A stretch of 64,000 bases of DNA from Escherichia phage JSE. The DNA lies in sequence record EU863408; one strand, 5' to 3'. Under the pieces are notes generated by a model. The model had not been told where the DNA came from. It saw only the letters and a program-made list of their open reading frames with translations, and did no database searches. Shown here piece by piece: positions 9,881 to 64,000 of the stretch (positions are counted from its first letter, which is position 1; each line of letters opens with the position of its first letter). The position numbers were made by a program, and so were the translations under genes.

Positions 9881-9888
9881 TATAAATA
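9881..9888 (+). promoter_or_regulatory. candidate T4-type late promoter (TATAAATA)
   Basis: exact TATAAATA about 30 nt before the plus-strand endonuclease ATG; RBS AAAGGAGA. Confidence 0.45.
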
Positions 9889-9917
9889 AGTTTGTTAGAA
9901 CTAAAGGAGATCACAAA

Positions 9918-10838
9918 ATGAACTATAAACGTATTTATGATAACCTGATTGAACGTGCTAAGACTAGAAATATCGACGGATACACAGAAAAGCATCACAT
10001 CATACCACGTTGTATGGATGGAAGCGATGACCCCACCAACCTAGTAAGACTTACACCAGAAGAACATTATATGGCACATCTTTTGTTAGTTAAGATATAT
10101 CCAGATAATAATAAACTGATATATGCCGCTAACATGATGTGCGTTTCTTGTCATGGACAAAGACAAACAAATAAGCGTCACGGATGGTTGCGTAGAAAAA
10201 CGGCGGAAGCGCATAGTAAAAGAATACGCGATAGAATGGAGAACGATCCAGAATATAGATCTAAGGTTTCGGAATGGGCTAGAAAAATGGGTAAAGCCAT
10301 GAAAGGCGTTAAGCGAGGACCGGAATTTAGCAGAAAGTTGGCAGAAAGAAACAGAAATACCGTGATGAGAGAAGAAACTAAACGTAAGATCGGGGAAGCC
10401 AACAAAGGAAAGAAACGTACAGAAGAATATAAAAGAAAACATAGTGAAAGGTATAAAGGTGAAGGTAATCCGATGTATGGTAAACGAGGAAAGGACCATC
10501 CGGCATATGGTACTAAACCGTGGAACAACCAAACATCATTTGTTGAGCAGAAAGCATGGTGGCGGTTCGCTGGCATGTTTTATGACTGGTATCGGAGAGA
10601 TATTGACCGTGGAACACATAAACGCCACGGTCATAAGAGAATGTTGGATGAGTTAGGTTTCGTTGGTTGGCGAGAAAAAGAGCCAGCCGCAGCAAGACGA
10701 TCAATTGAGATGTTCGCTAAAGGCTGGAATCCTTATGAAGACCAAGAATGGTTAGATTATGTTAATACCCGCTTTCCAAACGACGATAGTTTTCCGCGTT
10801 CTTCAACATATACAAGACAAACAGATCCTTCGCAGTAA
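9918..10838 (+). CDS. free-standing HNH homing endonuclease with NUMOD3-type repeats
   Basis: 306 aa; HNH core EKHHIIPRCMDGSDDPTNLVRLTPEEHYMAH; repeated basic ETKRKIGEANKGK-type motifs; the only long plus-strand gene here. Confidence 0.8.
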   Translation: MNYKRIYDNLIERAKTRNIDGYTEKHHIIPRCMDGSDDPTNLVRLTPEEHYMAHLLLVKIYPDNNKLIYAANMMCVSCHGQRQTNKRHGWLRRKTAEAHSKRIRDRMENDPEYRSKVSEWARKMGKAMKGVKRGPEFSRKLAERNRNTVMREETKRKIGEANKGKKRTEEYKRKHSERYKGEGNPMYGKRGKDHPAYGTKPWNNQTSFVEQKAWWRFAGMFYDWYRRDIDRGTHKRHGHKRMLDELGFVGWREKEPAAARRSIEMFAKGWNPYEDQEWLDYVNTRFPNDDSFPRSSTYTRQTDPSQ

Positions 10839-20204: not shown

Positions 20205-20236
20205 AATATAAACTCCTTCACTTACGAAAGACACTC

Positions 20237-20265
20237 ATTATAGGGGAATCGACTTAGTTTGTCAA
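20237..20265 (-). promoter_or_regulatory. sigma70-type promoter upstream of gene 43
   Basis: minus strand TTGACA, 17-nt spacer, TATAAT. Confidence 0.55.
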
Positions 20266-20286
20266 TACCCCTATCCCATCAGTATC

Positions 20287-20649
20287 TTAGCGTCCGATCT
20301 GATATTTCTCTATCAGCGTCCACTCTTCTTTCTGTTTGAAAGACAGTACACGGAAATTATTAACTTCGGTAGTTTCAAAATCACTATCAATCAGGGTACA
20401 CAGATTCCACTGCGCAAGAAGTTTTGCAATGTTATTACGGCGTAATTCATCTTCCCACGTCATTTTAACACTACGACCATCTAATTTCAACAACTCCTTG
20501 AAATGAACGATGTAATAGCGCCCTTTCTTCTGGAGAATATGACAAGACTGATACAGTGTCTTGTCTCGATTGTTGGCAATGCCGCAGCGGGTTAAAGTTT
20601 CCTTAATTTTAAGGAAGTTTTCAGGACTAATCAAATTAATTTCAATCAT
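20287..20649 (-). CDS. regA: RegA translational repressor
   Basis: 120 aa; near-identical to recalled T4 RegA (KETLTR, YQSCHILQKKG, NNFRV). Confidence 0.9.
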   Translation of the reverse strand: MIEINLISPENFLKIKETLTRCGIANNRDKTLYQSCHILQKKGRYYIVHFKELLKLDGRSVKMTWEDELRRNNIAKLLAQWNLCTLIDSDFETTEVNNFRVLSFKQKEEWTLIEKYQIGR

Positions 20650-33793: not shown

Positions 33794-34297
33794 TCAAATA
33801 ATTTTCACTGGAATACTATTAACAATCTTGTATTGTACTTGATTGTCAGACCCCCGCCACGGCTTCTTCGTTGGCATATCTTTAATATAACGCCCATCGA
33901 TGAACATGTCAACTGATTCTACAATTTTTCTTTGCTCATCATTCAATTGGTCAAGGGTATAACCGGACCATAGCCAAATATCTTTATTTGGCATCCATGA
34001 TTTTACTTCATCGATGATCCGCTGTACACCCTTTAAATTGCGTTTATACAACGGATCACCACCTAAGAATGTTAGCCCCTGAATAAAATCAGGTCTAAGC
34101 AGATCCAGAATCAATCCCATTGTATCATCGGTGAATGGTTCCCCGTTCTTAGGATTGAGTAGGCTAGCATTAAAGCAACCATCACATGCGTGTGAACATC
34201 CGGTAACGTAAAGGGAGACTCTCACTCCCTCACCGTTAACCATATCACAATCTTTAATATCGGCATAGCGTAGTTTGCCGTATGTATCAGAACTCAT
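33794..34297 (-). CDS. nrdG: anaerobic ribonucleotide reductase activating protein (radical SAM)
   Basis: track ORF 33794-34303; CSHACDGC radical-SAM cluster motif. Confidence 0.85.
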   Translation of the reverse strand: MSSDTYGKLRYADIKDCDMVNGEGVRVSLYVTGCSHACDGCFNASLLNPKNGEPFTDDTMGLILDLLRPDFIQGLTFLGGDPLYKRNLKGVQRIIDEVKSWMPNKDIWLWSGYTLDQLNDEQRKIVESVDMFIDGRYIKDMPTKKPWRGSDNQVQYKIVNSIPVKII

Positions 34298-47100: not shown

Positions 47101-47877
47101 TTACACGCGAGCACCGTAGATCGTGCCTACTTTATCCCAGCGTGGAGCATTACCAGTAACGGCTTTACCAGCAGCACCACCGTTATATTCTGTACCGTTC
47201 CCCTGAGTATTACATCTTCCTCCAGCAGCACCAACGTTACCGCCCGCACCGCCTGTATATGCACTAAGAGACCCCTCACCAACAGATCCTTTACCAGGAG
47301 CGGAAATAGTACCAGCAGTTGCACCGGAACTCATATGAGAGGAAGACCCACCAGCACCGAATGGGCGACCACCGCCACCACCAAATACTAGTCGACCCCT
47401 GTTACCGCCGCCACCGCCGCCACCGCCGCCAGCGATAGCACCGTTATTTGTAATTCGTAGACGTGTACCGATAGCGTTATTGATTGCGTTTCCACCAGCA
47501 GCGCCAGCAGCGTTACTACCACCATTACCCCCACGTCCGTAGACAGTCACACCGGAGTTAATGATCAATGTTACATATTCGTTTGTTAACGAGCTAGGGA
47601 AGTCAAGACAAGGAACGCCAGTAGATTGGGAAACAATATCACCAGTGATAGTAATTACTACAGGAGTAGATCCTTGTGCTTTCATCCAGTTAATAAGAGT
47701 GTCTTTATTGTAAGAGTTACTAGCACCAATGCTATAATGAATCTCTTTAGAGCGTCCGACCATTGCCGACATATACGCCGGACGACCTAAGCGTACAGCT
47801 TCCATTGCGGCACTCATCCACCGTTGACCAGTCTCGGACACAGCAGATGATCCTACCCATCCAGAAGATATTGCCAT
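47101..47877 (-). CDS. glycine-rich protein of unknown function
   Basis: 258 aa; C-terminal two-thirds dominated by Gly runs incl. nine consecutive Gly from (GGC/GGT) repeats; own terminator. Confidence 0.6.
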   Translation of the reverse strand: MAISSGWVGSSAVSETGQRWMSAAMEAVRLGRPAYMSAMVGRSKEIHYSIGASNSYNKDTLINWMKAQGSTPVVITITGDIVSQSTGVPCLDFPSSLTNEYVTLIINSGVTVYGRGGNGGSNAAGAAGGNAINNAIGTRLRITNNGAIAGGGGGGGGGNRGRLVFGGGGGRPFGAGGSSSHMSSGATAGTISAPGKGSVGEGSLSAYTGGAGGNVGAAGGRCNTQGNGTEYNGGAAGKAVTGNAPRWDKVGTIYGARV

Positions 47878-47891
47878 AAAATTTCCTCACA

Positions 47892-47913
47892 AGAAAAGCC
47901 CCATTTAAGGGGC
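47892..47913 (-). terminator. terminator-like hairpin
   Basis: minus RNA GCCCC-UUAAAU-GGGGC then UUUUCUU. Confidence 0.45.
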
Positions 47914-47931
47914 ATTGATTGATAATATTAC

Positions 47932-48153
47932 TTAGATGATCTCTGCTTCACCATCCAAGAAGAAAGACCATGTTTTGTTAGGATAGCGAAGCGCCCATGA
48001 TTCGGCAGTTTTAACACCAGTTTCGAACAATTGACGGCTGGTCACTTTAGCCATACCATCTTCGATGGCAACGTTTTCAATAATCATCGGGTACTTAGCG
48101 CCACGCATGAAACCGAAGCCAGCGGAAGATTTGATAATTTTAACAGTTGCCAT
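47932..48153 (-). CDS. hypothetical protein
   Basis: track ORF 47932-48207; start MATVKII at 48151-48153 with AGGAGAATCAAAA. Confidence 0.5.
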   Translation of the reverse strand: MATVKIIKSSAGFGFMRGAKYPMIIENVAIEDGMAKVTSRQLFETGVKTAESWALRYPNKTWSFFLDGEAEII

Positions 48154-49406: not shown

Positions 49407-49436
49407 TTTTGATTCTCCTTTGTTGTCGATGTGTGC

Positions 49437-49465
49437 ATTATGCTATACCCTATTCCGGTTGTCAA
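49437..49465 (-). promoter_or_regulatory. sigma70-type early promoter
   Basis: minus strand TTGACA, 17-nt spacer, CATAAT. Confidence 0.55.
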
Positions 49466-49470
49466 CACCT

Positions 49471-49506
49471 AAAAACGAAAAAGCCACCCTTTCGGATGGC
49501 TTTTTG
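49471..49506. terminator. bidirectional intrinsic terminator
   Basis: hairpin AGCCACCC-TTTC-GGATGGCT flanked by A-run and T-run. Confidence 0.6.
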
Positions 49507-49735
49507 ATTATATTTTATTCACGTCCATTTGTATAGTAGTGTTTGAATCGACCTTTGCTAAACTAGTTAAACATAGTAACCAATTCACCATCCCTTTCCA
49601 ATGATAACCCTTCCTCGTCTTAGACGGGTCTTCCGATTCGGTAGTAATTGAACACGCGAAAGTATGAGGAAGCCAAATAGTTGTGTTAATGCTAGTATTC
49701 TTTTACTTCTGGTATGCATCCCACGGTGACTAACA

Positions 49736-50134
49736 TTAAGCCAGTCGAGTGAGTTTATAAATTGTTTTAAAGCATAGAGCTTTGATATCGTCTAAAACGC
49801 TCTGTAACGAGCTATCAACATCATTATAAATCTCACTAGCCATTTGCGTTAACTCTTGCAAATAGGCAATTTCGCTAATCTCCTTGCGGACGACCAACTT
49901 TGGCTGATAACGACCAGTGATCCCAATATTGGTTTCAGTGAAATTATCAACCAATTCTTGCATTTCAAGATAGAACTCTTCTAGAGCCTTATGTTTTGCA
50001 TAAGATCCAGGACCAGTTACCCCAAAATGCGCAGAATGCATATAAGTAACACTCATCAGACATTCACCGATAAAGCGGTCAACTTTATTAGCCTTTCCCT
50101 CTTCGGACGTCTTTAGAAAATCACTGAATTTCAT
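49736..50134 (-). CDS. hypothetical protein (weak ferritin/Dps-like pattern)
   Basis: 132 aa; HSAHFGVTGPGSYAKHKALEEFYLEMQE resembles Dps helix A/B; not verified. Confidence 0.4.
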   Translation of the reverse strand: MKFSDFLKTSEEGKANKVDRFIGECLMSVTYMHSAHFGVTGPGSYAKHKALEEFYLEMQELVDNFTETNIGITGRYQPKLVVRKEISEIAYLQELTQMASEIYNDVDSSLQSVLDDIKALCFKTIYKLTRLA

Positions 50135-50423
50135 GTTCTAGATTCTCCATATTATGCAACAGAACAAATTGTTGTGCGGCATATCCCCCCATAATAAAAC
50201 ACTGCCTAGAATCCATACATTTACTACGAGCATACATCTTCATAATATGGGCATGAAATTTCTGGCTGGTTTCAATGGAAGGAGATATTTTGTTTACATA
50301 TACTATCATTGCGCCGTCGAAATAATCAGTAAAGTCACCAGTTGGATCATATTGATCAGCACCGACACTTCCGACCGCAGTCAAGCATATTGCCGCTGTT
50401 AGAGTTTTACGAATAAATGACAT
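50121..50423 (-). CDS. small secreted protein (signal peptide)
   Basis: 100 aa; N-terminus MSFIRKTLTAAICLTAVGSVGA. Confidence 0.45.
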   Translation of the reverse strand: MSFIRKTLTAAICLTAVGSVGADQYDPTGDFTDYFDGAMIVYVNKISPSIETSQKFHAHIMKMYARSKCMDSRQCFIMGGYAAQQFVLLHNMENLEHEIQ

Positions 50424-50456
50424 AAGTCATTCCCCCAGATTGAAAATATTCAGTTA

Positions 50457-50464
50457 TATTTATA
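50457..50464 (-). promoter_or_regulatory. candidate T4-type late promoter (TATAAATA)
   Basis: minus-strand TATAAATA about 33 nt before ATG of 50121-50423, inside a 9-bp inverted repeat. Confidence 0.35.
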
Positions 50465-50491
50465 ATCTGGGGCTTTATTTATGATTAACTC

Positions 50492-51088
50492 TTATTTGGT
50501 AGTACCGTCAATAAAATGTTTACGACACACAGAAACATATTTATCCTCTGCACCAACTTCTATTTGAGCACCATCGCGAATAACATTACCCTCTTTATCT
50601 ACACGAAGGACCATTGTTGCTTTCTTGCCACAATGACAAATACCCTTCATTTCGACCAGTTTATCAGCAAATGCCATTAATGCCGCAGATCCTTCAAATA
50701 GATTGCCCTGAAAGTCAGTGCGAAGGCCATAGCACAGTACAGGGATATTAGCATCATCAACAAGCGCACACAAGCCTAAAACATGCTCTTTAGTCATAAA
50801 TTGGGCTTCATCTACAAATACAGCATCAGGACGCCAGCGATCCGGTCTACGCTTACCTAACGATTCACGATAAACCAAATCGAAAAGATCATCCGATTTA
50901 GTGAAGGTGATCGCTGGGGCACTTAGGCCAATTCGGGAAACGACTTCACTTTCTGAATCTCGATTATCAATCGCTGGCTTAAGAATTAATACTCGCATAT
51001 CACGTTCTGTATAGTTATAAGCACTTTGTAACAGAGAAGTTGATTTGCCAGCGTTCATAGATGCATAGTAGAAATATAATTGCGCCAT
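50492..51088 (-). CDS. tk: thymidine kinase
   Basis: 198 aa; P-loop YYASMNAGKSTSLLQ; C-terminal zinc motif CHCGKKA...CRKH. Confidence 0.9.
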   Translation of the reverse strand: MAQLYFYYASMNAGKSTSLLQSAYNYTERDMRVLILKPAIDNRDSESEVVSRIGLSAPAITFTKSDDLFDLVYRESLGKRRPDRWRPDAVFVDEAQFMTKEHVLGLCALVDDANIPVLCYGLRTDFQGNLFEGSAALMAFADKLVEMKGICHCGKKATMVLRVDKEGNVIRDGAQIEVGAEDKYVSVCRKHFIDGTTK

Positions 51089-53201: not shown

Positions 53202-53235
53202 TAATTTCTCCTGTTTGGCTTAACTTTCTGATTCC

Positions 53236-53264
53236 ATAATATAGCCCTATCACCAGAAAGTCAA
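53236..53264 (-). promoter_or_regulatory. sigma70-type promoter
   Basis: minus strand AATGCTTGACT (TTGACT), 17-nt spacer, TATTAT. Confidence 0.45.
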
Positions 53265-53287
53265 GCATTATTTTTAACCAATTTCCA

Positions 53288-53710
53288 TTATTGGTCTACC
53301 TTCAAAACAACCGCCGACATTTTACCCGCCAGTCGTTTTGGATTCTCTATAATCATTCGGCAGCATAGACCGTGATATGGCTTACCCTCTTCGATTAGAT
53401 CTACTGTCATCCCGATCCACATGTTACCGTCAGTAATTTCTAATCGATTCGGTCGGTCTTCCATTTTCAGGAAGTCGAAGATCTCCGGCAAACGAGTTTC
53501 TATCTTATTGAATAGTTCCATTGTCTTATGTTCATCGATATGACGATCGGTTAGACGGTCGATCATATGCGGACTAAAGCGAATGAAAATATACTCACCG
53601 TAACCATCATTCAAGCACTTTTCTTTGATCTGCGCATTGGTTTTGCGCATTTCGGTTTCGAAGAATCTACGCAGCTTACTACGGCGAACATGTACGTTAA
53701 TTGTTTCCAT
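53288..53710 (-). CDS. regB: RegB endoribonuclease
   Basis: track ORF 53288-53752; start METINVHVRRSKLRR at 53708-53710; RLEITDGNMWIGMTV and CRMIIENPKRLAGK match T4 RegB. Confidence 0.75.
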   Translation of the reverse strand: METINVHVRRSKLRRFFETEMRKTNAQIKEKCLNDGYGEYIFIRFSPHMIDRLTDRHIDEHKTMELFNKIETRLPEIFDFLKMEDRPNRLEITDGNMWIGMTVDLIEEGKPYHGLCCRMIIENPKRLAGKMSAVVLKVDQ

Positions 53711-56412: not shown

Positions 56413-56897
56413 TAGTTGATACCTAAGCCAATGAAAATAGGTTGGTCTTCTACATTACCCATCCCAACACTAAGTCGATTCAATTCTAAAAACTGCAATA
56501 CGCTGTCAGTAAATCCGCGCATGGTAGTATCTAGGATAAAAATTGTTTTGTCAAGACTACGACCTCGCCATGTGATCGGATTCAGGAAAGTTCGGATAGA
56601 TGTACAATCTACATCTGAAATATTTACATTTTCACCGCGACCGCGATCTCGGATCGTTTTGGCATGTTCCCGCGTCGTTGAAACGATAAAGACACTATAG
56701 CCTTTTCGCGTATAATGGTCATATAACTTGATTGTAGCGTCTGTATGCCCTGTCTGACGGCCTAAATTGATTGAGACGATGGAATCTAGGTCATCAGCAA
56801 AATTGCGTCGCTTACGGCGTTCTATGATGCCATTTACGGCAGATACACACGCAGCATAAATCAAATCTTTACTTTCTAATTTTACATCAATATTCAT
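56412..56897 (-). CDS. hypothetical protein
   Basis: 161-aa ORF; preceded by inverted repeat ACGGGGAGA...UCUCCCCGU. Confidence 0.5.
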   Translation of the reverse strand: MNIDVKLESKDLIYAACVSAVNGIIERRKRRNFADDLDSIVSINLGRQTGHTDATIKLYDHYTRKGYSVFIVSTTREHAKTIRDRGRGENVNISDVDCTSIRTFLNPITWRGRSLDKTIFILDTTMRGFTDSVLQFLELNRLSVGMGNVEDQPIFIGLGIN

Positions 56898-56959
56898 GGT
56901 AAAGTCTCCAGTGAACGGGGAGAGATCCTTAGATTGTCTCCCCGTTGATGGTTAATATT

Positions 56960-57535
56960 TTATTTTGGATCTGGGAAATTCAATAGAGCATATTCTCCAT
57001 AAAATTTCCTAGCTGCATTATCATAAGCGATTGCAGCTTCGATTTCTGTGTCATATTGTCCAAGAACATGTCTTTGTAGGTTGACCATTATACTAGCTCT
57101 CCATTTCTTACGCAAATCCTTCCTGTTACACTTACTAACACCCTTATACACACTAGAAAACTTTTTAGACTTCTTCTTTCTATTATGTTGATTTTGCGCG
57201 TCGGTTGCCTCCCTAAGATTTGGAGGATTGTTATTAGCAGGATTACCGTCAATATGATCAATTAATCTAACTTGCGTCCCATGTTCTAGAAACCAAACAA
57301 CCCTATGCACGAATAGATGAACTCTAGGAAGACCGTCATCTCTACTATGCCAAAATCTAAGATGACCATCTTTATTTGTTCTGACTTTAACTAAATCGCC
57401 GTGTTTATATCTACTCCCTAATGGTCGTCCTTTGATAGCTTTACTATCGACTCTATAATATAAGATACCCTCTATATGAGCATATCTAAGTTTTATCTCG
57501 TTTTGTAGGGATTCATCCCAATATTTAAAAGCCAT
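56960..57535 (-). CDS. free-standing HNH homing endonuclease with AP2-type domain (paralog of 3019-3582)
   Basis: 191 aa; HRVVWFLEHGTQVRLIDHIDGNPANNNPPNLREAT; also similar to 3019-3582 at nucleotide level. Confidence 0.8.
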   Translation of the reverse strand: MAFKYWDESLQNEIKLRYAHIEGILYYRVDSKAIKGRPLGSRYKHGDLVKVRTNKDGHLRFWHSRDDGLPRVHLFVHRVVWFLEHGTQVRLIDHIDGNPANNNPPNLREATDAQNQHNRKKKSKKFSSVYKGVSKCNRKDLRKKWRASIMVNLQRHVLGQYDTEIEAAIAYDNAARKFYGEYALLNFPDPK

Positions 57536-61105: not shown

Positions 61106-61291
61106 TCAGAAATATGCAATATAGTTTGCCAGTCCGACAGAGTCATCATTCGGCATTGCTTTTACTGCCAGTTCAAACCCTGCTTCAACTTTCTGTTTAG
61201 CGGATTCTTCGTTATAACCCCAGATTACCAGAATAGCTACTACGTTTTCTTTGCTTACTGCTTTCAGTGCTTTAGTGATGCGACGTGCCAT
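61106..61291 (-). CDS. hypothetical protein
   Basis: 61 aa; GGAGAATCAAATT-ATG. Confidence 0.45.
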   Translation of the reverse strand: MARRITKALKAVSKENVVAILVIWGYNEESAKQKVEAGFELAVKAMPNDDSVGLANYIAYF

Positions 61292-61337: not shown

Positions 61338-61366
61338 ATTATGCTATAGGCCGGATCTGGTGTCAA
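61338..61366 (-). promoter_or_regulatory. sigma70-type early promoter
   Basis: minus strand TTGACA, 17-nt spacer, CATAAT; conserved leader. Confidence 0.6.
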
Positions 61367-61397: not shown

Positions 61398-61424
61398 AAA
61401 AAAGCCACTCCGAAGAGTGGCTTA
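61398..61424 (-). terminator. intrinsic terminator
   Basis: minus RNA GCCACUC-UUCG-GAGUGGC then UUUUUUAUU. Confidence 0.6.
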
Positions 61425-61570
61425 TAGGGAAGGTAGCGAATCTTCCTTGTCTCCAACCTGCTAGCGGCCTAGCAAGTGAATGCTTTAGCGTACCGGATCG
61501 CCCATACGCTGCAATAAATGCGGCTAGGTGACGTCCAAATCATTCTAACCGCGCTGTCTTTAGTTCACTA

Positions 61571-61789
61571 TTATTTATATCGCTTTCTCTCGCGACGTTT
61601 TTGATCTTCTTCCTTGATAGAGTTAAATGCATCAAAAAGACACATGACACTAATAATAAACATAACCGTATTTTCTACGATATCCCACGGCTTCGCATCA
61701 GTACAGATCCCCCAAACGGTAAGAAATGCAAATAGTGCAGAAGAGATCACAAGCATGATACTTGCTAAGATATAAAAAGTCATTTTCAT
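61571..61789 (-). CDS. small membrane protein
   Basis: 72 aa; two TM helices, basic tail. Confidence 0.45.
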   Translation of the reverse strand: MKMTFYILASIMLVISSALFAFLTVWGICTDAKPWDIVENTVMFIISVMCLFDAFNSIKEEDQKRRERKRYK

Positions 61790-63402: not shown

Positions 63403-63867
63403 TTACAGTTTGGTCGTCCACTCCAGGTCTAGATCTTCGACATACTCATGAGATCGGACAATCTCTAAATCGAACTCTAGGTCAGTGCCAAATTTACGCG
63501 CACCAACATCATAAGAAAGCGTGATATGCGGTACATATTCAGGATAATCCCACGTCGCGCCTAAAGCAGTGCCGATATCGTGTCTGAATTGCATGTAGTC
63601 GCTTTCAAATGCCAACACAAGCGCATTAGTACCGGATTGAGTTTCAAACACTTTCAGATGGCATAGAGAGCCTAAAAACTTTTCACCCTCTTCTGGGATA
63701 AACGGAACATAGACACGAGAATATAAGATAGTGCTATGCAGTTTATCACGAGGAACGGCATTAGGCAGATCGTAGAACTCCTGCAATTTTTCAATGCGGT
63801 CTAGTGTATCCTCAGTGAATTTAACAGCCGCATATGTACCTTTAACGGATTCTCGAAACGGGGTCAT
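63403..63867 (-). CDS. 2H phosphoesterase (LigT/Acb1-like); candidate anti-CBASS cyclic-nucleotide phosphodiesterase
   Basis: track ORF 63403-63873 (TTG); ATG at 63865-63867 with SD GGAGG; two H-x-T/S motifs (H44-S-T, H114-I-T); position corresponds to T4 57B. Confidence 0.6.
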   Translation of the reverse strand: MTPFRESVKGTYAAVKFTEDTLDRIEKLQEFYDLPNAVPRDKLHSTILYSRVYVPFIPEEGEKFLGSLCHLKVFETQSGTNALVLAFESDYMQFRHDIGTALGATWDYPEYVPHITLSYDVGARKFGTDLEFDLEIVRSHEYVEDLDLEWTTKL

Positions 63868-63869
63868 AA

Positions 63870-64000
63870 TCAAGCCTCCGTGATCAGTTCTACTTCCTCT
63901 TCTGCGTCTTCCGCTGCTTCGTCTTTAGGGAGAAGTGCTTTCACTTCTTCGACAATAGCATCAAGGGAAACAGTCCCGTTTTCGTCTGGCTGAATACCCA
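63870..64000 (-). CDS. hypothetical protein, 5' end outside window (C-terminal 43 codons visible)
   Basis: open frame to window edge ending ...EDAEEEVELITEA; stop 2 nt before downstream ATG. Confidence 0.4.
   Translation of the reverse strand, partial: GIQPDENGTVSLDAIVEEVKALLPKDEAAEDAEEEVELITEA

Follow-up and report, generated by a model that had tools for sequence, protein, structure and literature searches.

Introduction

According to a 2010 review, functional characterisation had not yet been achieved for any small regulatory RNA acting in trans in bacteriophage T4, the roles of its rnaC and rnaD being unknown, and it was hoped that the genomes of relatives would supply small-RNA candidates (PMC3014915). 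Here we describe a 146-nucleotide (nt) spacer on the minus strand of Escherichia phage JSE (EU863408), at positions 61570-61425 of a 64,000-nt stretch of its DNA. This whole stretch is referred to as the window, and coordinates are those of the window unless another genome is named. An earlier interpretation made from the letters alone (the sequence-only reading) had proposed that this segment, bounded by a T4-type late-promoter consensus and a terminator, would give a late transcript of about 150 nt with no coding capacity.

The closest described systems are the two stable RNAs of T4, rnaC and rnaD (species 1 and 2), which are processed out of tRNA precursor transcripts. Like the RNA predicted from the spacer, they are small structured RNAs of a T4-type phage with no known role, and they are encoded on the early strand downstream of 57A/57B. 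The 3' end of rnaC carries a tRNA-like T-arm, which may be compared with a T-arm resemblance in the 3' module of the spacer. On the other hand, rnaC and rnaD are annotated directly downstream of tRNA genes, whereas RB49, the relative that we used for comparison and which also carries the spacer, has none. A candidate late promoter and a terminator of its own further set the spacer element apart from rnaC/rnaD. The sequence-only reading had suggested a search for similarity to T4 small RNAs; alignment of the spacer to rnaC and rnaD found none.

Two other types of small RNA resemble the spacer in their arrangement. In the lambda 6S/StxS system, RNA from the late promoter PR' is stopped at tR', and a regulatory small RNA is produced in this way in Stx phages (PMC7547250). 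The spacer shares the order of late promoter and then, directly, terminator, which gives a short non-coding RNA, although the spacer RNA is only predicted; PR' is a sigma-70 promoter while the spacer has a gp55-dependent box, and there is no sequence relationship between the two. We know of no antitermination logic for T4-type late promoters. The 3' untranslated region (UTR)-derived, Hfq-type small RNAs of enterobacteria likewise lie at an operon end and share its terminator (stem plus six U), and by analogy the spacer RNA could be processed out of a longer transcript or made from an internal promoter. Such RNAs differ in having seed-target pairing, which was not found for the spacer in the phage genome.

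The PeSL cassettes of RB49 and Phi1, finally, have stem-loops described as effective terminators and act as recombination substrates (PMC2839356). The terminator at 61423-61396, the A/T tract and the promoter at 61366-61338 all correspond to those of the RB49/Phi1 PeSL (Arbiol et al. 2010). The 146-nt body, in contrast, lies outside the repeated cassette, is present once per genome and is better conserved than the cassette.

Sequence constraint on the spacer

We read the spacer as a Krischvirus-specific structured non-coding RNA element, which most likely accumulates as a discrete small RNA; we give this reading about an even chance. The features on which it rests are as follows.

61570-61425, minus strand: the spacer, 146 nt, between the open reading frame (ORF) 61571-61789 and the terminator
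61572-61579, minus strand: exact T4-type late-promoter box TATAAATA, built by the codons TAT-AAA-TAA (Tyr-Lys-stop)
61553-61566, minus strand: single-stranded 5' leader GAACUAAAGACAGC of the predicted late RNA, with one position G, A or deleted among isolates
61520-61552, minus strand: hairpin 1, whose 8-bp basal stem GCGGUUAG/CUAGCCGC is separated by an AA/C internal loop from a second stem of 4 bp that carries a 6-nt loop
61487-61510, minus strand: hairpin 2, with a 7-bp stem, a short apical stem and a hypervariable loop
61452-61480, minus strand: hairpin 3, with an 8-bp core CUUGCUAG/CUAGCAGG (61476-61457), a GCCG loop and a possible 4-bp extension UUCA/UGGA
61428-61446, minus strand: hairpin 4, GGAAG-AUUCGCUAC-CUUCC, inside a tRNA T-arm-like segment
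61396-61423, minus strand: intrinsic terminator AAGCCACUC-UUCG-GAGUGGCUU followed by a U-run; this is the stem-loop of a PeSL cassette

A segment of 601 bases spanning the locus matched 57 phage records at 95-99% identity, all of them Krischvirus, and on this match the phage of the window is itself a Krischvirus, an RB49-like T4-type coliphage. The spacer was present in 57/57 Krischvirus records, the same 57 that carry 57B. We aligned 19 sequences comprising the window, phage records and metagenome contigs; the phage sequences had been picked for low spacer identity, so that spacer diversity is if anything inflated. Pairwise diversity of the spacer without hairpin 2 was 0.008, and that of hairpins 1, 3 and 4 and the terminator was 0.003-0.006. 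The adjacent ORF gave 0.100 (third codon positions 0.19, first and second positions 0.055), the PeSL region 0.052 and the third codon positions of the downstream ORF 0.055. The spacer is thus 12-fold less diverse than the adjacent gene and 6-fold less diverse than PeSL, with loops and linkers as invariant as stems. Metagenome relatives keep it even though their flanking ORF is only 81-83% identical. The spacer is under far stronger sequence constraint than its neighbours.

Outside the genus the spacer was not detected. A BLAST search of 50,697 phage records gave no spacer match beyond Krischvirus, among 5,426 E. coli genomes the terminator alone was matched and not the spacer, and IMG/VR and GTDB genomes likewise gave no spacer match outside Krischvirus. 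In JGI metagenomes three further Krischvirus-like contigs with the spacer were found. The spacer body is single-copy per genome: when a covariance model built on hairpins 1-4 was run over RB49 and the window, no second copy appeared. The same model found no homologue in the T4 locus or in 56 57B neighbourhoods of T4-like phages (1.1 Mb).

We found the spacer to be non-coding because it tolerates indels of 1-2 nt, because the end of its only candidate micro-ORF varies, and because substitutions in that micro-ORF are five to none in favour of non-synonymous changes. The 5' leader has an indel of 1 nt, and the length of the hairpin 2 loop differs by 0, +1 or +2 nt among the sequences. The sequence-only reading had seen no ORF in 61425-61570; mechanical ORFs of 24-36 residues do overlap the spacer, and none survives comparison of the isolates. 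The candidate that would place a peptide here, MIWTSPSRIY..., of 15-55 residues, begins at the ATG at 61543, 28 nt past the late-promoter box, a spacing like that of real late genes. Its ATG and first 10 codons are invariant, and some annotators call small ORFs at this place. This ATG is nevertheless buried in hairpin 1 and has no Shine-Dalgarno sequence, the frame ends after 15, 19, 24 or 55 codons depending on the isolate, and all 5 substitutions in it are non-synonymous (0 synonymous) and coincide with compensating RNA stem positions. A functional micropeptide is highly improbable.

Predicted RNA structure

Minimum-energy and alignment folds agreed on four hairpins plus the terminator, which supplies the structure prediction that the sequence-only reading had named as a check. 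The minimum free energy of the spacer alone had a z-score of -3.4, which is in the top 4% of 1,597 windows of the same size and strand (window-wide mean -0.6); when the terminator was added, z was -4.5 and -4.1. Pairing in the four well-supported helices was kept by every stem substitution, and 99.7% of cells pair. Hairpin 1 is invariant save for one C>U change in its loop (diversity 0.003), the core of hairpin 3 is invariant, with a pair of its possible extension broken in one isolate, and the single A>G change in hairpin 4 retains pairing as G-U. Variation of the spacer is concentrated in hairpin 2 (diversity 0.11). There, pair 59:82 was G-C in 12 sequences, G-U in one and A-U in two, and three other pairs vary only through G-U. 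The covariation score was equalled by 10/500 shuffles. The substitution pattern is consistent with RNA structure, though the diversity is too small for proof.

These data also bear on whether the constraint acts on DNA rather than RNA. The spacer could be a protein-binding site, a recombination anchor by PeSL or an origin-like region; the strict invariance does extend to positions that are unpaired in the predicted RNA, and the spacer adjoins the PeSL cassette, a known recombination substrate. Yet PeSLs are repeated while the spacer is unique in the genome, and PeSL itself is more variable (0.052). In addition, the changes in hairpin 2 obey RNA pairing, with G-U intermediates that would be meaningless in duplex DNA. 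We regard a DNA-level element as quite unlikely.

Two further RNA classes were considered and dropped. For a riboswitch or attenuator, the terminator showed no alternative pairing partner, and none of the Rfam riboswitches was matched. For a CsrA sponge, the spacer has about four GGA triplets against about 2.6 expected.

Separately from the spacer, minus-strand 146-nt windows with stronger folding (z -6 to -7.7) were observed at 49895-50040, 20215-20360, 53215-53360, 50375-50520, 56895-57040 and 33895-34040. The segment at 49895-50040 falls inside the ORF of the rI.-1 homologue.

The late-promoter box

The sequence-only reading had noted an exact T4 late-promoter consensus at the stop of ORF 61571-61789, and we found this box, TATAAATA, at 61579-61572; all coordinates given in that reading were correct. 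A T4-type late promoter requires nothing beyond the 8-bp box and A/T-rich sequence downstream of it, and has no -35 element (PMC2988020). The exact match at 61579-61572 corresponds to the 8-bp box that gp55/gp33/gp45-dependent late promoters have about one helical turn upstream of the start, and ATAGT, with 4/5 bases A or T, follows it directly. The box of such promoters covers -13 to -6 relative to the start (PMC1524935), and from its position here a late start is predicted at a G, at about 61566.

The sequence-only reading had allowed that the box could be a chance occurrence in AT-rich DNA. As far as numbers go this holds: exact TATAAATA boxes are not in excess, as the window has 3 where 5.7 would be expected, and RB49 has 14 where the expectation is about 15-20. 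Their placement, in contrast, is far from random. Twelve of the 14 RB49 boxes lie 25-50 nt upstream of late-gene starts (rI, 53, 9, 18, 22, 23, 24, uvsW, 51, the gp31 homologue, 34 and the gene at 150156), leaving 2 outside promoter positions where roughly 15 would be expected, a depletion of about 7-fold or more. Of the other two boxes in the window, one precedes the rI homologue and one a NUMOD3 homing-endonuclease ORF. Because the placement of RB49 and window boxes departs so far from random, non-promoter boxes are strongly depleted: spurious late-promoter boxes have been purged in the RB49 lineage, and nearly every exact box is promoter-positioned.

Judged by its placement in RB49, the spacer box is one of only two orphans. 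We count it as such because neither a Shine-Dalgarno sequence nor a conserved ORF follows, so that it lacks the late gene, with ribosome-binding site, that begins 25-50 nt beyond 12 of the 14 RB49 boxes. The box was unchanged in 17/18 variants and deleted in one metagenome contig. It is not one of the 17 late promoters that Nolan et al. predicted in RB49, among which the exact boxes upstream of uvsW and of the gp31 homologue are missing as well.

Further observations concern other boxes. The only other orphan TATAAATA of RB49 is outside the window, at NC_005066 94996-95368 (L017 44996-45368). It follows the major capsid gene 23, in a gap of 503 nt for which no gene is annotated, and no ORF starts within the next 45 nt; this region may mark a second late non-coding transcript. 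The likeness of the spacer to it was not significant, being equalled by 385/1,000 shuffles. At 9881-10838 on the plus strand of the window, an exact TATAAATA is followed by AAGGAG and by the ATG at 9918 that opens a 306-residue NUMOD3 ORF. This looks like a homing-endonuclease-type gene that sits as an insertion among early genes of the minus strand and has a late promoter of its own. The plus strand of the first 64 kb of RB49 has no TATAAATA box, and the 9881 box is probably absent there.

Early transcription and the terminator

The following features place the spacer within its operon.

61571-61789, minus strand: ORF of 72 residues, a membrane ORF, ending ...AAG CGA TAT AAA TAA TAG TGA
61565-61573, minus strand: three successive in-frame stops TAA TAG TGA at the end of the 72-residue ORF
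63359-63331 and 62912-62884, minus strand: upstream early promoters, whose transcripts pass dmd and the small membrane ORFs into the spacer
61338-61366, minus strand: early sigma-70-type promoter of PeSL (TTGACA, 17 nt, CATAAT), which drives the gene at 61106-61291

After the TAA, both TAG (61570-61568) and TGA (61567-61565) are in frame; isolate E26 reads TAA CAG TGA at this site. The minus-strand gene order in RB49 is 57A, 57B, two ORFs, dmd, five small ORFs that are hydrophobic in appearance, a 278-nt gap and a further small ORF, and the spacer element falls within the 278-nt gap. PHROG scans of ten neighbouring ORFs returned Dmd as the sole function. On the minus strand from 63376 to 61423, no terminator-like site was found before that of the spacer. 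By this layout the spacer is the 3' untranslated end of the early dmd operon and is early-transcribed in any case.

The terminator that the sequence-only reading saw at the end of the segment is real. It has a 9-bp stem at 61423-61402, a UUCG loop and six U, as in intrinsic (Rho-independent) terminators; ARNOLD annotation in G37-3 gives the same terminator, and TransTerm predicted it in RB49 with a score of 100 (Nolan 2006 supplement). The region 61423-61338 consists of a stem-loop, an A/T-rich tract and a strong sigma-70-like promoter and is repeated in hyperplastic regions, as PeSL is defined. The search with the 601-base segment hit 3-5 places per genome, which we read as the repeated PeSL cassette. 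Both the early transcription of the segment from dmd-operon promoters and the membership of its terminator in a PeSL cassette go beyond the sequence-only reading.

These results allow a rival interpretation, in which the spacer acts only in cis as a 3' UTR. Hairpins and terminator would stabilise or insulate the dmd-operon mRNA or set its decay, for instance via an exposed GGAG, a RegB-type site, and the box would be a harmless by-product of codons, tolerated with any late transcript dying at the terminator. The spacer does separate the terminator of an early operon from the operon's last ORF, and a regB homologue is present in the genome. The site is also not among the published late promoters. 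What this interpretation accounts for poorly is that a stabiliser requires stems only, yet loops and linkers are equally conserved; that a 146-nt untranslated tail is unusual in a tightly packed genome; and that spurious boxes elsewhere have been purged. We consider a purely cis-acting role possible but doubtful.

Several neighbours of the spacer deserve mention. The 57B homologue (63403-63873, minus strand) is named 'RNA ligase' in RefSeq and belongs to Pfam Acb1 (anti-CBASS) in related contigs; it is about 0.7 kb upstream of dmd, and the stretch may be a small counter-defence island. Directly downstream of PeSL, the 61-residue ORF 61106-61291 (minus strand; DUF7421) has homologues of 56-80% identity in about 117 E. 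coli/Shigella phage records. Those genomes are of roughly 50 kb and not Krischvirus, which suggests gene exchange between unrelated phage groups. A second long ORF-free stretch (49407-49735, minus strand) separates the rI.-1 homologue (49736-50134) from the ORF that follows, and ends with a terminator (stem at about 49500-49483) and a PeSL promoter; RB49 has a gap of 328 nt at the corresponding place (47675-48002). Late transcription starting at the rI promoter box (50457-50464) would terminate in this stretch of the window.

tRNA-like and ToxI-like resemblances

Two resemblances were found in the 3' part of the element, the first of them along one segment.

61418-61451, minus strand: 34-nt stretch GACAAGGAAGAUUCGCUACCUUCCCUAUAAGCCA, 26/34 identical to the 3' part of tRNA-Asn(GUU)

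The lead came from the covariance model, whose two sub-threshold matches (E 1.6 and 7.4) were tRNA genes and pointed to tRNA-Asn. The matched part is the last 34 nt of an 83-nt tRNA-Asn(GUU) that several T4-like phages carry about 2 kb downstream of 57B; it runs from the variable region through the T-arm and the 3' acceptor strand to GCCA. The likeness of 26/34 is in the same orientation and in the same neighbourhood relative to 57B, and 61451-61418 tied for the best tRNA-like match across the RB49 genome. It is a weak likeness, with a BLAST E of 0.12 in 0.9 Mb and shuffle p values of 0.015 (285 tRNAs) and 0.0025 (trimmed tRNA). Moreover, the spacer has no cloverleaf and no 5' acceptor partner, and the equivalents of T-loop A58 and G53 are changed. 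ARAGORN found 0 tRNA genes at the element, as did the Rfam tRNA model, and a comparison of the spacer to all Rfam families gave no tRNA at E up to 10. A likeness of hairpin 1 to a minihelix of tRNA-Asn acceptor and T-arm was not above shuffles and was rejected. A tRNA origin of the 3' module of the spacer is plausible, perhaps at one chance in three, and not established.

If so, the spacer could be a decaying and functionless remnant of an ancestral tRNA or rnaC/rnaD cluster, with its conservation a matter of young age or hitch-hiking. Its position downstream of 57A/57B, which matches the T4 tRNA and rnaC/rnaD locus, and the 26/34 identity to the 3' half of a phage tRNA-Asn would fit, as would the fact that no tRNA genes were found in RB49. 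A pseudogene, however, should drift at least as fast as synonymous sites, whereas spacer diversity is 12-fold below the adjacent gene and 6-fold below PeSL. Substitutions in hairpin 2 preserve pairing, and the element is retained in 57/57 genomes. We consider a functionless remnant very unlikely.

The second resemblance lies within the same segment. GAUUCGCUACCUU (61442-61430) matched the ToxI sequence GAUUUGCUACCUU, the repeat having been confirmed on pECA1039, at 12/13 positions, with a shuffle p of 0.014 that is uncorrected for ToxI having been picked after the resemblance was noticed. The spacer might on this basis be a pseudo-ToxI, an RNA antitoxin mimic neutralising ToxN-type toxins of type III toxin-antitoxin defence. 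Such a role would suit a position beside dmd, an anti-RnlA/LsoA factor, the exact ToxI repeat occurs on 49 small E. coli plasmid records, and phage PhiTE employs mimicry of this kind (PMC3475682). Against it, the ToxN-binding positions C27 and U28 of ToxI have no counterpart, and neither tandem repeats of about 36 nt of the ToxI type nor an AAAU ToxN cleavage site were found in the spacer. Among the 10 weak matches to all Rfam families there was no toxin-antitoxin RNA, and the same 13 nt are explained at least equally well by the tRNA T-arm likeness. With a 12/13 match at that p value and no repeat, membership of the ToxI family was rejected; the mimic is hardly credible. That two likenesses with p near 0.01 fall on the same 13 nt is a caution against over-reading either.

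As an observation in its own right, the 36-nt ToxI repeat of Pectobacterium pECA1039 was present on 75 PLSDB plasmid records, mostly at 95-100% identity and most of them small. These include 49 Escherichia and 12 Salmonella records, so that ToxIN with this antitoxin is common in hosts of these phages.

Discussion

We return to the reading of the spacer as a genus-specific structured RNA that accumulates as a discrete small RNA. In the mechanism that we propose, the gp55-type polymerase would late in infection also start at about G61566 from the embedded box and stop at the terminator, giving an RNA of about 170 nt (61566 to about 61397) independent of the early mRNA. What the sequence-only reading observed is confirmed, and its interpretation is supported in part: such a late transcript would have no coding capacity, and the length of about 150 nt needs revising, the predicted RNA including the terminator. 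Terminator hairpin and internal hairpins would shield the RNA from exonucleases. The RNA probably acts by sequence-specific contacts with protein or RNA, as a regulator or decoy, rather than as a mere 3' stabiliser; we favour a sequence-specific role in trans because loops and linkers are as invariant as stems. The 3' module may descend from a tRNA gene, and in T4-type relatives a cluster of tRNA, rnaC and rnaD occupies the equivalent place downstream of 57A/57B. A late RNA of about 170 nt from the spacer is plausible and unproven.

A number of results weigh against this reading. Folding energy alone is unremarkable for this genome, as about 4% of windows equal that of the spacer and several coding windows fold at z -6 to -7.7. 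Only one pair is altered on both sides, and the diversity is too low for a real covariation test. Identity among isolates is mosaic, with several coding stretches also 97-100% identical, and part of the spacer conservation could stem from recent exchange. Rfam 15 gave 0 matches at the gathering threshold in the window, and the sub-threshold ones were terminator-driven. Conservation of the box is inseparable from protein constraint, the box being made of coding and stop codons, and the metagenome contig L013 (MAVA01000028.1) has a 14-nt deletion (equivalent to window 61568-61581) that removes box and stops while the spacer is kept. The codon make-up and this contig both favour the cis-acting 3' UTR. 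Complementarity to the rest of the RB49 genome was not above chance (two 12-mers against about three expected), and a literature search found neither RNA-seq of an RB49-like phage nor a description of the spacer element.

Contig L013 also has a 2-nt insertion upstream, its spacer being otherwise identical; it is either a true natural variant or an assembly error.

The tRNA likeness permits a more specific proposal. A fragment of the old tRNA cluster may have been kept and reshaped after tRNA loss in the RB49 lineage and be expressed late from its own promoter as a decoy that titrates or misdirects a host factor. The target may be a factor that recognises RNA resembling a tRNA or an antitoxin, for example a defence nuclease of the tRNA-targeting or ToxN type. 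We think this tRNA-derived decoy unlikely. If it were true, the spacer would be an RNA-only counter-defence gene that shares a small island with dmd and the Acb1-family 57B; a tRNA origin, if true, would show the fate of a phage tRNA cluster after its loss.

We regard the spacer, which is unannotated, as a good candidate for a phage small RNA specific to this genus. As a candidate it is testable, being single-copy and having ends defined by a consensus late promoter and a strong terminator, and it is universal in one genus of therapeutic coliphages, where it is far better conserved than the surrounding orphan genes. Since exact TATAAATA boxes are almost never spurious in this lineage, orphan boxes can flag unannotated RNA genes.

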